IMG/VR virus record: IMGVR_UViG_2703718808_000018
Coordinates: 1-12,452 of that record
Origin: a virus
Taxonomy: Duplodnaviria; Heunggongvirae; Uroviricota; Caudoviricetes
Strand: one strand, 5' to 3'
Length of the DNA stretch: 12,452 nt
Part shown: in pieces, positions 5,879 through 6,952 of the stretch
Numbering within the stretch: position 1 is the first letter of the stretch
Layout of the letters: each line of letters starts with the position of its first letter
Position numbers and translations under genes: made by a program
The notes under the pieces: model-generated
What the model was told of the DNA's origin: nothing
Seen by the model: only the letters and a program-made list of their open reading frames with translations
Databases searched by the model: none

Positions 5879-5917
5879 ACAATTAAAAACTGTTTTGTGT
5901 CAACAGTTTTTAATTGT
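5879..5917. promoter_or_regulatory. OL-like operator: perfect palindrome of two 15-mers (ACAATTAAAAACTGT ... ACAGTTTTTAATTGT, 9-bp spacer) overlapping a leftward promoter
   Basis: The 15-mer differs by 1 nt from the 15-mer in the regulator/cro intergenic region (6914..6952) and has identical arm length and spacer. On the minus strand a consensus -35 TTGACA (plus 5903-5898) is followed 18 nt later by TAGATT (plus 5879-5874). Confidence 0.5.
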
Positions 5918-5927
5918 ATTTTTAAGC

Positions 5928-5951
5928 AAAAAAAATCCCTCGAAAGAGGGA
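5928..5951 (-). terminator. Rho-independent terminator of the leftward regulator-antitoxin-toxin operon
   Basis: On the minus-strand RNA: UCCCUC-UUUC-GAGGGA (6-bp stem, 4-nt loop) followed by 8 U (plus-strand A-run 5928-5935). Lies 19 bp downstream of the toxin stop at 5970. Confidence 0.65.
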
Positions 5952-5969
5952 GTATGAAAATAGTTCAGC

Positions 5970-6257
5970 TCAGATAGAGAAGGGAAATTGTCGGCGAGCA
6001 TGTGTCACGCTTACAATCTCAATGCTTGAAGCAGCTACTCTGTACAGGATTATGTAGTTAGGGTGGGTCACTATCTCTCTCAACCTAGAAACCCGTTCGC
6101 TTGGTGGATATAGGTACGGATGCTCAGATAGAGGTAATACCGATGTTTCAATACGTATTTTAAGTCTACGCGCTGCCGGTGGGTTCTCCTTGGCGATGTA
6201 AGTTATGATCTGACGCAAATCATCGCGAGCAGATGGTAGCCATAAAATGGGCAACAT
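5970..6257 (-). CDS. parE: Type II toxin, ParE/RelE superfamily
   Basis: 95-aa ORF (MLPILWLPSARDDLRQIITYIAKENPPAARRL...) with the size and N-terminal pattern typical of ParE toxins. Its start overlaps the stop of the upstream 63-aa ORF by 1 nt (TAATG), the usual antitoxin-toxin coupling. Confidence 0.85.
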   Translation of the reverse strand: MLPILWLPSARDDLRQIITYIAKENPPAARRLKIRIETSVLPLSEHPYLYPPSERVSRLREIVTHPNYIILYRVAASSIEIVSVTHARRQFPFSI

Positions 6258-6448
6258 TACTCGCTCCTGTTAGTTACAGCAATTTGAGCAATAAGATTTT
6301 CCATTTCAGCCATTACCTCGTCATGTGGAATTGCGGGGCGAGGGTCTGCAAGGCTTGACGCTACTTTAGCGCGCAACCATTCGTTGTAACTGTTTTCTTG
6401 TTCGATAGTTTCGAATTCTGAAACTATCGGAGAAAGGGCTGTACTCAT
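6257..6448 (-). CDS. Type II antitoxin partner of ParE (PaaA2-like)
   Basis: 63-aa acidic ORF immediately upstream of and coupled to the ParE-like gene, with AGGAG 7 nt before its ATG. Size and the N-terminal SPxVSEFETIEQENSYNEWLRAKVA..SLADPRPAIPHDEV region match my recollection of PaaA2-type antitoxins of three-component ParE systems. Confidence 0.8.
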   Translation of the reverse strand: MSTALSPIVSEFETIEQENSYNEWLRAKVASSLADPRPAIPHDEVMAEMENLIAQIAVTNRSE

Positions 6449-6475
6449 GGCATAACTCCTCTTCTTGTACTGTGG

Positions 6476-6877
6476 TCACGCCCGGCGGCTTTTTTGTGCC
6501 GCCAGCCACCGGGCAATGGTTTCTTCCATTGATTTTTTTTTGTCTTTGATTTCTTGAAGCATTTTTTCTTGGTCCTCCTCAGGGAACGCACTAAAAGCCT
6601 GGAGTAATTCGCGTTGGCGAGGACCAATTTTCATCGTGTTAGGGGTGAACATTTGCTCCCCCTCTTCAGGAGGCAATAAAAACCAATGCAACGGATGCCC
6701 TGTAACCTCAACCAGTTTATCCAAACTTGAGGCTTTAGGTGTAGCCTTACCGCTGACCCATTGTTGAACAGTTTGTTGTGTCACACCAATTCTACGGGCC
6801 AGCTCAGCCTGGCTCCATCCAGTTTCCTGAAGAAGCTTGCTGATTCTGTACATCGATACTTCTAGGGCGCTCATCAT
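6476..6877 (-). CDS. HTH (XRE-family) transcriptional regulator; PaaR-like third component and likely prophage repressor
   Basis: 133-aa ORF with an N-terminal helix-turn-helix (ISKLLQETGWSQAELARRIGVTQQTVQQWVSG) and no S24 peptidase domain. It is transcribed divergently from the cro-like gene and is followed on the same strand by the antitoxin and toxin. Start is either ATG 6877 or ATG 6853 (MYRIS...). Confidence 0.8.
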   Translation of the reverse strand: MMSALEVSMYRISKLLQETGWSQAELARRIGVTQQTVQQWVSGKATPKASSLDKLVEVTGHPLHWFLLPPEEGEQMFTPNTMKIGPRQRELLQAFSAFPEEDQEKMLQEIKDKKKSMEETIARWLAAQKSRRA

Positions 6878-6913
6878 TATTCAATTTTACAGGTAAATAC
6901 TGTTAAAAGCATC

Positions 6914-6952
6914 ACAATAAAAAACTGTTGATTGCGTACAGTTTTTTATTGT
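6914..6952. promoter_or_regulatory. OR-like operator: perfect palindrome of two 15-mers (ACAATAAAAAACTGT ... ACAGTTTTTTATTGT, 9-bp spacer) in the divergent regulator/cro-like intergenic region
   Basis: Exact 15-bp inverted arms, each itself near-palindromic (ACAAT...ACTGT). The spacer carries TTGATT (6928-6933), read rightward as a -35, followed 17 nt later by TAGCCT (6951-6956). A TATAGT at 6963-6968 and the strong RBS GAGGAGG of the cro-like gene lie downstream. Confidence 0.55.

Follow-up and report, generated by a model that had tools for sequence, protein, structure and literature searches.

Two left and three right 15-bp sites as probable operators of the immunity switch around a repressor-paaA-parE operon in an Escherichia coli Stx2c prophage

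Introduction

Two near-identical 39-bp palindromes bracket a small repressor-antitoxin-toxin operon in a 12,452-nt stretch of DNA from a tailed phage (Caudoviricetes; IMG/VR record IMGVR_UViG_2703718808_000018, positions 1 to 12,452; the whole stretch is hereafter called the window), which raises the questions of what these palindromes are for and whether the functional unit is the whole palindrome or each of its 15-bp arms. An original prediction, made from the sequence alone, had read them as left and right operators (OL and OR) through which one repressor would control two outward early operons, by analogy with the lambda operators that flank cI-rexA-rexB, with the toxin-antitoxin (TA) module in the position of rexAB and with looping of the DNA between them as a possibility. 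We analysed the window together with a set of 49 related loci from an IMG/VR scan, whose repressors range from 100% to 50% identity. Very probably, the sites are the OL (two) and OR (three) operators of a CI-like, non-cleavable repressor of the PaaR family and of its Cro-like partner, working in the manner of the cryptic prophage CP-933P and of lambda.

Results

Five 15-bp sites flank the repressor operon

The 15-mer ACAATWAAAAACTGT occurs in four exact copies in the window, which form two inverted pairs with centres at 5898 and 6933, 1035 bp apart. Written as arm, spacer and arm, the left pair (5879-5917) reads ACAATTAAAAACTGT-TTTGTGTCA-ACAGTTTTTAATTGT and the right pair (6914-6952) reads ACAATAAAAAACTGT-TGATTGCGT-ACAGTTTTTTATTGT; the sole difference between left and right 15-mers is T or A at position 6, and it is present in both arms of each pair. 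A pattern search of the window with ACAATWAAAAACTGT, in which up to 3 mismatches were allowed and 200 shuffles served as control, returned 5 matches (0.84 expected; 0/200 shuffles reached 5), the fifth being a weaker copy, ACAGGTAAATACTGT, at 6889-6903 with 3 mismatches to ACAATWAAAAACTGT. A repeat finder reported 15 + 9 + 15 for the right palindrome and 17-bp arms around a 7-nt spacer (5878-5918) for the left one. Both searches thus recovered the four 15-mers and two perfect palindromes where the original prediction had placed them, the left one being slightly longer, while the fifth site (OR3), the repressor's own promoter (PRM) and a terminator at 5936-5951 on the minus strand were absent from that prediction. 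Neighbouring sites in the window are spaced 24-25 bp from centre to centre.

The relatives yielded a degenerate consensus, ACARKWWWWWMYTGT, which matched five times, always at OL or OR (0.00 expected), in the 49.9-kb locus L056 (NZ_CP024289.1, 1800500-1850400; the window corresponds to its positions 49308-36857). A search for further copies of the 15-mer elsewhere in the prophage had been proposed as a check; in L056, which covers the whole Stx2c (Shiga toxin 2c) prophage with flanking host genes, no additional operator copies were found outside the five OL/OR sites. The looser pattern ACA-N9-TGT also matched at 3973 and 9388 of the window, in G+C-rich sequence, with about 3 matches expected by chance. 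The operator form for this type of immunity, which we call CP-933M-type after a homologue described below, is most likely ACAR-N7-YTGT, i.e. ACA(A/G)-N7-(C/T)TGT. The positions of the sites and of the features around them are collected in Table 1.

One explanation of the inner halves of the pairs invokes direct SOS control of both early promoters through LexA boxes, as the inner junctions CTGT-N9-ACAG resemble CTGT-N8-ACAG and an SOS input would be attractive for a repressor without an autocleavage domain (see below). A scan of the window for CTGT-N8-ACAG itself, however, gave no match; the spacing is N9 in the window, N10 in the OL of strain EDL933, and relatives carry TTGT instead of CTGT, which leaves this explanation with next to no credibility.

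Table 1. Sites, promoter elements, genes and DNA segments of the immunity region and its surroundings (positions of the window)
Feature	Positions	Strand	Remarks
OL1, 15-bp operator	5879..5893		ACAATTAAAAACTGT; exact copy; PL-proximal, centre ~-19 of PL
OL2, 15-bp operator	5903..5917		ACAGTTTTTAATTGT; reverse complement of OL1; centre ~-43 of PL
OR3, weaker operator	6889..6903		ACAGGTAAATACTGT; over PRM spacer, centre ~-19 of PRM
OR2, operator	6914..6928		ACAATAAAAAACTGT; one base from PRM -35; overlaps PR -35
OR1, operator	6938..6952		ACAGTTTTTTATTGT; exact copy; centre ~-19 of PR
PL -10 TAGATT	5874..5879	-	Promoter scan; predicted start ~5867; aatcta invariant in 5 aligned variants
PL -35 TTGACA	5898..5903	-	Begins at OL2 last base, into inter-operator spacer; tgtcaa invariant in variants
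PR -35 TTGATT	6928..6933	+	Read from sequence
PR -10 TAGCCT, weak	6952..6957	+	18-nt spacer to -35; predicted start ~6964
PRM -35 ATGCTT, weak	6907..6912	-	17-nt spacer
PRM -10 TAAAAT	6884..6889	-	Read from sequence; predicted start 6877 = A of repressor ATG
Intrinsic terminator of repressor-paaA-parE operon	5926..5951	-	TCCCTC-TTTC-GAGGGA then T8; hairpin 5936-5951
CI-like repressor, 133 aa	6476..6877	-	Pfam HTH_3, E 2e-13; 434-like N-terminal helix-turn-helix (HTH) and PaaR2-like C-terminal oligomerisation region
PaaA-type antitoxin, 63 aa	6257..6448	-	Pfam PaaA2, E 3.1e-22; no DNA-binding domain
ParE-family toxin, 95 aa	5970..6257	-	Pfam ParE_toxin, E 2.4e-17
YdaS-family Cro analogue, 90 aa	6986..7258	+	Pfam YdaS_toxin, E 7e-10; helix AQQTVWQW
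YdaT, CII analogue, 141 aa	7242..7667	+	Pfam YdaT_toxin
Shine-Dalgarno GAGGAGG	6974-6980		
GTGATTCATGAAAATCAA	7235-7252		ydaS/ydaT junction
dicB	4129-4317	-	Cell-division inhibitor gene
sok antitoxin RNA	11349-11523	+	Rfam RF01794, 113 bits
Hok/Gef ORF (open reading frame)	11461-11673	+	Overlapped by sok
DNA compared with CP-933P type (locus L003)	5550-5861		87%; PL leader, ydfA
DNA compared with CP-933P type	5862-5980		None; OL and terminator
DNA compared with CP-933P type	5981-6616		68%; parE, paaA, repressor C-terminal half
DNA compared with CP-933P type	6617-7227		None; HTH, OR, ydaS
DNA compared with CP-933P type	7228-7597		89%; ydaT

A repressor with a 434-like recognition helix faces a Cro analogue

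The genes for the repressor, the PaaA-type antitoxin and the ParE-family toxin follow one another on one strand, the order of a three-component TA system by Pfam, and a 108-bp intergenic region separates the repressor gene from the divergent ydaS-ydaT operon. A Pfam scan of the 133-aa repressor returned HTH families only and no Peptidase_S24 domain, so it is not a CI of the lambda type. Its HTH had the 434 repressor as best PDB match (E 2e-5; phmmer, 434 R1-69), and in the alignment GVTQQTVQQW of the repressor stands opposite GTTQQSIEQL of 434, with Gln at all three positions equivalent to Gln28, Gln29 and Gln33, as in a 434-type recognition helix. In the 434 repressor these three residues read ACAA. 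The 15-mers would accordingly be read by a 434-like Gln-Gln-x-x-x-Gln recognition helix. The YdaS helix AQQTVWQW resembles TQQTVQQW of the repressor, and QQ(T/S)V is kept in the YdaS proteins of the relatives; with such a helix, this Cro analogue plausibly reads the same sites as the repressor, as 434 Cro does.

No match was obtained in the immunity region by an Rfam search, or for the TA proteins and the alternative cargo ORFs (see below) by PADLOC. At the ydaS/ydaT junction, GTGATTCATGAAAATCAA differs from the YdaT operator TTGATT-N6-AATCAA by one mismatch and corresponds in location to OM, a site footprinted in CP-933P (PMC9986795). A PRE-like control point probably lies there.

Candidate operators overlap the predicted outward promoters

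The leftward promoter (PL) was called by a promoter scan as TTGACA-18 nt-TAGATT (minus strand, 5903..5874; 10/12 consensus positions). According to the original prediction, the palindromes overlap oppositely directed -35 hexamers, TTGACA leftward and TTGATT rightward, and the two promoter regions align through the -35, an 18-nt spacer and TAGATT versus TAGCCT; both statements held when read against the sequence, and PL was found by the scanner as well. PL and the rightward promoter (PR) are built alike, with the centre of the first operator (O1) at about -19 and that of the second (O2) at about -43, the final base of O2 being the first of the -35 and the final base of O1 the first of the -10. 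Relative to the PRM start as predicted, the centres of OR3, OR2 and OR1 fall at -19, -44 and -68; relative to the PR start, likewise predicted, they fall at -68, -43 and -19. By these predicted starts, a tripartite OR is common to divergent PRM and PR and its operators overlap promoter elements, as in a lambda-type switch.

Across the variants, the PR -35 is TTGAT(T/C) or TTGACC, with L037 (TTTATT) as sole exception, and the PR -10 keeps T-A-N-N-N-T, divergent variants included (TAGCCT, TAGGCT, TAGTCT, TAGGAT, TAATCT). TATAGT (6963-6968) was discarded as an alternative PR -10, since L004/L046 have lost it and L047 and L048 do not have it, whereas TAGNNT is kept. The gene ydaS is preceded by a Shine-Dalgarno sequence (Table 1). 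The PRM -10 precedes the A of the first repressor ATG (6877) by 7 nt, with no Shine-Dalgarno sequence, and L047 and L048, whose repressors are 81% and 69% identical, keep both CCTGTAAAATT and its spacing to ATGATG. This position, the missing Shine-Dalgarno sequence and the conserved distance predict a leaderless repressor mRNA, probably starting at the A of the ATG.

Between parE and OL sits the operon terminator (fold -5 kcal/mol, z -4.6), whose stem is kept in L004 with changed loop and stem bases. The palindromes might themselves act as nucleic-acid hairpins, such as an RNA stem, a cruciform or a terminator working in both directions, and not as protein sites, given that their single-strand folds reach -14 and -12.4 kcal/mol (z ~-6) and that the scanner listed the left palindrome as terminator-like on the plus strand. 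However, their stems are nearly pure A/T (3/17 G-C pairs), and both lie upstream of the neighbouring predicted starts, so that PL, PR and PRM would not transcribe them; the pairing potential is lost in L004/L046 and L051-54, where the sites (ACA...TGT or equivalent) and the promoter hexamers stay, and the real terminator is the G+C-rich hairpin at 5936-5951. Hairpin function is therefore very improbable.

Relatives point to the single 15-mer as the operator

Three ACA-N9-TGT sites were located at -75, -51 and -26 from the repressor ATG in 44 of the 45 loci that have the TQQTVQQW helix. L047 (81% identity) and L048-50 (69%), whose site interiors are diverged, are among these tripartite loci. 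The locus that has diverged most, L055 (50% identity), carries two strict sites at -82 and -33, and inspection by eye adds a degenerate third in between, AAAAGAATTTATTGT, with one mismatch to ACA-N9-TGT. At OL, beyond the other end of the repressor operon, the relatives have a pair of sites 23-25 bp apart. Lone 15-mers are perfect 7+1+7 dyads in L047 (ACAGTAATTTACTGT) and in L055 (ACAAGATCATCTTGT). Among E. coli-type loci, OR1 and OR2 are invariant and OR3 varies at position 6 only, and within the 9-nt spacer of OR the bases TGAT(T/C) of the -35 are kept and the rest are free (TGATTGCGT, TGATCAAAT, TGATCATGA, TGATCGTAT and others).

At OL, the EDL933-type pair (ACAATA.../...AATTGT) has a 10-nt spacer, 14/15 inverted identity and 25-bp spacing; it is intermediate at position 6, with one arm of each kind. 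The OL of L031 and that of L032 are each changed in one arm, the palindromy of the OL pair is 14/15 in three configurations among the relatives, and in L004/L046 OL2 is flipped, giving a direct repeat (12/15 direct versus 9/15 inverted identity). At OL, a palindromic pair is thus not needed. A third specificity, represented by L051-54 (repressor 66% identical, helix AQQSVQKW), has ACACTTTTAAAGTTA-like 15-mers, and its neighbouring sites are in direct orientation at OL and OR alike. Lys takes the place of Gln at the 434 Gln33-equivalent in these loci, and operator position 4 is altered along with it.

The original prediction had taken the 39-bp palindrome as the functional unit, and here the comparison did not bear it out: with a lone OR3, varied spacing, flipped sites and single-site dyads, the 15-mers behave as self-contained units, and each most likely suffices as the operator of one repressor dimer. 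If each 39-bp palindrome were instead one operator, its arms would be the half-sites of a symmetric tetramer or half octamer and the symmetry of the pair would be required. Such an operator would suit the perfect palindromy of both pairs in the window, the position 6 difference shared by both arms of each site, the octameric state of PaaR2 (the CP-933P repressor) and the inverted identity of OR2 and OR1, which are exact inverted copies (15/15) in every E. coli-type locus and reach 14/15 in L047 and 13/15 in L048. It is nevertheless unlikely, since OR3 is a lone 15-mer at the same phasing, the sites of an OL pair may be 23, 24 or 25 bp apart, changed in one arm only or, in L004/L046, flipped, neighbouring sites are directly repeated in L051-54, lone 15-mers are perfect dyads in L047 and L055, and a 15-bp half-site is far beyond the reach of one HTH.

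Several points weigh against our overall reading of the locus as a switch with 15-bp operators and a 434-like repressor. Taken alone, each 15-mer of the window shows just 4-5 of 7 positions of internal dyad symmetry. The sites are 15 bp long and not of the 14-bp form ACAA-N6-TTGT, which makes the 434 analogy inexact, and the PR -10 TAGCCT has 3/6 consensus positions and was not called by the promoter scanner. Most of the related loci are close relatives, and invariance among them carries limited weight for that reason. For CP-933P, the authors stated that the precise binding sequences remain to be determined (PMC8630535). The inverted identity of OR2 and OR1, finally, means that a constraint or a homogenising process acts at the level of the pair, a symmetry that independent operators leave unexplained; candidates are a symmetric tetramer, templated quasi-palindrome correction and a recent inverted duplication. 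The pattern suggests that the arms change in concert, for example by such templated correction.

The operator bracket persists when the cargo changes

The slot between the repressor gene and OL holds paaA-parE in most loci, including the window (OL-OR distance 1032-1037 bp), nothing in L044 (683 bp) and L055 (534 bp), a 120-aa ORF in L047 (1059 bp) and a 123-aa ORF in L048-50 (1342 bp). The 120-aa ORF has a sub-threshold Pfam match to EACC1 (22.6 against a 23.6-bit cut-off). As the OL/OR bracket persists with no or unrelated cargo, it belongs to the repressor and not to the TA pair. The slot appears to behave like the rexAB moron position of lambda, with the TA pair as a swappable passenger, and the rexAB position that the original prediction had assigned to the TA module agrees with this variability as well as with what has been published for CP-933P (PMC9986795).

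Because the palindromes flank the TA operon, they could be thought of as its autoregulatory operators, bound by the PaaA-ParE complex in the canonical type II style. Palindromic operators are indeed typical of type II TA promoters. However, the 63-aa PaaA consists of the PaaA2 toxin-binding domain only and has no DNA-binding domain, so that the TA complex is not expected at the operator sites; the sites persist without the TA pair or with other cargo (L044, L047, L048-50 and L055), and the left one lies beyond the operon terminator and not at the operon promoter. We consider TA autoregulation highly implausible.

The proposed switch lies in a Stx2c prophage that looks complete

The window belongs to a lambdoid Stx2c prophage of E. 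coli, of which it forms the left arm. It differs at 1/12,452 bases from E. coli O178:H19 strain 2012C-4431, where this prophage (in L056) is inserted with potB on one side and potC on the other. Besides stx2c A and B, the prophage encodes three tRNAs and has genes for lysis, terminase, capsid and tail, and it is apparently complete. To the right of ydaT follow a DnaT-like gene and a lambda-P-like replication gene, and to the left of OL lie DUF1391/ydfA, dicB, the exonuclease gene exo, xis and int. The gene dicB is part of the leftward operon downstream of PL; with this cell-division inhibitor under PL, a host that loses the repressor would be expected to suffer, in keeping with the linkage of the repressor gene to an addiction module. 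The overlapping sok RNA and Hok/Gef ORF at the right of the window (Table 1) constitute a second, type I, TA system, and the prophage has another Hok/Gef gene close to its tail-fibre genes.

The OL and OR regions are each present in 509/5426 complete E. coli genomes (about 9%). EDL933 carries this type of locus once, at 1.2557 Mb (92% identical over 2 kb), which by inference is the homologue on CP-933M that is mentioned without analysis in PMC8630535. A phage database search gave only fragmentary matches (85-89%, at most 23% of the query covered), so none of the phages deposited there carries this immunity type, and a literature search for the four 15-mers gave one irrelevant match and no published description.

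Discussion

From the sequence anatomy, its conservation and the homologies of the proteins, we infer a switch that would involve binding, cooperativity, activation, autorepression and looping. Repressor dimers would bind single 15-bp sites through the 434-like helix Gln-Gln-Thr-Val-Gln-Gln, and repressor at O1 and O2 would cover the spacer and the -35 of PL and PR, keeping both early operons off. OR2 is one base from the weak PRM -35, where bound repressor could activate PRM, while the weaker OR3 over the PRM spacer would provide negative autoregulation and is a candidate target of the Cro-like YdaS, which bears a similar helix. The genes paaA-parE would be co-transcribed with the repressor gene as far as the terminator at 5936-5951, as a passenger in the rexAB position that takes no part in operator binding. 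Looping is proposed on account of the homology between the C-terminal region of the repressor and octameric PaaR2: repressor bound at OL1 and OL2 may associate with that at OR1/OR2 and loop out the intervening 1035 bp, and on the strength of this homology and of the 2 + 2 strong sites, we put the odds of such a loop at about even. That one repressor would command both early operons from an OL/OR-like bracket, as originally predicted, fits the CP-933P experiments and the conservation among relatives.

A bolder version, which we regard as doubtful, would have a pre-formed PaaR-type octamer (eight HTHs) clamp OL1/OL2 and OR2/OR1 (eight half-sites) into an obligatory 1-kb loop around the repressor gene and the addiction module. 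The symmetry of the pairs would then reflect the point symmetry of the particle, and the outcome would be an SOS-independent bistable Stx2c switch with a repressor that is non-cleavable via RecA. If true, such an octamer-clamp switch would mean a different logic in the control of Shiga toxin release.

Published work on the CP-933P paralogue already contains the architecture, the analogy to rexAB and the idea of looping, and as this architecture is established there, our finding confirms a known design and adds no new mechanism. What is new is the operator definition for CP-933M-type immunity with its 434-like recognition logic, the comparative evidence for single 15-mers as units, the variability of the cargo slot, and the observation that an apparently complete Stx2c prophage is governed by the switch. 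The definition (ACAR-N7-YTGT; two OL and three OR sites) is clean and testable and applies to an immunity type that about 9% of the complete E. coli genomes carry. At least three heteroimmune specificities occur on one scaffold, with the OL island swapped together with the island of HTH, OR and cro, and this shared scaffold with its joint island swap offers a convenient natural system for the co-evolution of repressor-operator specificity. A Stx2c prophage switch whose repressor is not cleavable through RecA also bears on how, and whether, toxin production is induced.

With lambda, and its cI-rexA-rexB in particular, the locus shares a repressor operon bracketed by operators over outward early promoters, a tripartite OR common to divergent PRM and PR, neighbouring sites about 24 bp apart from centre to centre, passengers that share the repressor transcript and have a terminator between them and OL, and a likely leaderless repressor mRNA. 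It differs in that its repressor has no RecA-cleavable S24 C-terminal domain, its operators are 15 bp instead of 17 bp, its OL has two recognisable sites, and a ParE/PaaA pair replaces RexAB. The OL-OR distance is 1.0 kb here, whereas it is about 2.3 kb in lambda.

As in phage 434, the sites start with ACA(A/G), end with (C/T)TGT and have an A/T-rich centre, OR and OL both have multiple sites, and repressor and Cro analogue share a QQ recognition helix. The 434 repressor, however, has an S24-type C-terminal domain where that of the window has a PaaR2-like one, and the Cro analogue here belongs to the YdaS family, so that the likeness between the two repressors is at the HTH level only and does not amount to orthology. 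The OR and OL of 434 each contain three 14-bp sites whose outer 4 + 4 bases are conserved (reference operator ACAATNNNNATTGT; PMC1636474).

The closest comparison is with CP-933P of EDL933, whose paaR2-paaA2-parE2/ydaS-ydaT region was studied by Jurenas et al. (2021; PMC8630535). In that work, the 97-bp intergenic region was footprinted by PaaR2 and by YdaS, the operators were reported with the consensus GTTTAGTAA, the paaR2 mRNA was found to be leaderless by 5'RACE (rapid amplification of cDNA ends), low PaaR2 activated PRM933P and repressed PR933P, and PL933P, with OL1-3 beyond parE2, was repressed about 100-fold by PaaR2 or YdaS. PaaR2 has no RecA-cleavage motif and is octameric, which prompted the OL/OR looping analogy, and PaaA2 has no DNA-binding domain, regulation being left to the third component (PMC8630535). 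Prolic-Kalinsek et al. (2023; PMC9986795) placed paaA2-parE2 in the position of rexA/rexB and PaaR2 in that of CI. The name paaR1 and the evidence for an octamer are taken from PMC8630535 and PMC3141249.

Gene order and orientation are the same in the window and in CP-933P (locus L003 served as reference for protein and DNA comparisons), and ParE, PaaA and YdaT are 67%, 77% and 84% identical. Both have a multipartite OR between the divergent repressor and ydaS genes and a second operator set with an outward PL beyond parE, which in the window consists of two exact 15-mers over TTGACA-18-TAGATT; neither repressor has an S24 domain, and the -10 placed 7 nt before the repressor ATG fits the leaderless paaR2 mRNA. 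The repressor is 42% identical to PaaR2 (BLASTP E 7e-21) over residues 37-133 only, with strong conservation of its C-terminal half, whereas residues 1-36, with the N-terminal HTH, are unrelated and the YdaS of the window shows no similarity at all. The operators here are ACAR-N7-YTGT 15-mers and not of the GTTTAGTAA type, as checked in the CP-933P sequence, two OL sites stand against three reported there, and an apparently complete Stx2c prophage against a cryptic one. Along the DNA (Table 1), the mosaic boundaries are sharp, and that at 6616/6617 cuts the repressor gene where its two domains join. With operators, YdaS and the DNA at 5862-5980 and 6617-7227 unrelated, the immunity specificity is not that of CP-933P. 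Only specificity elements have been exchanged, as two islands; judged by its sequence, the locus is thus a heteroimmune, CP-933M-type variant of the CP-933P scaffold.

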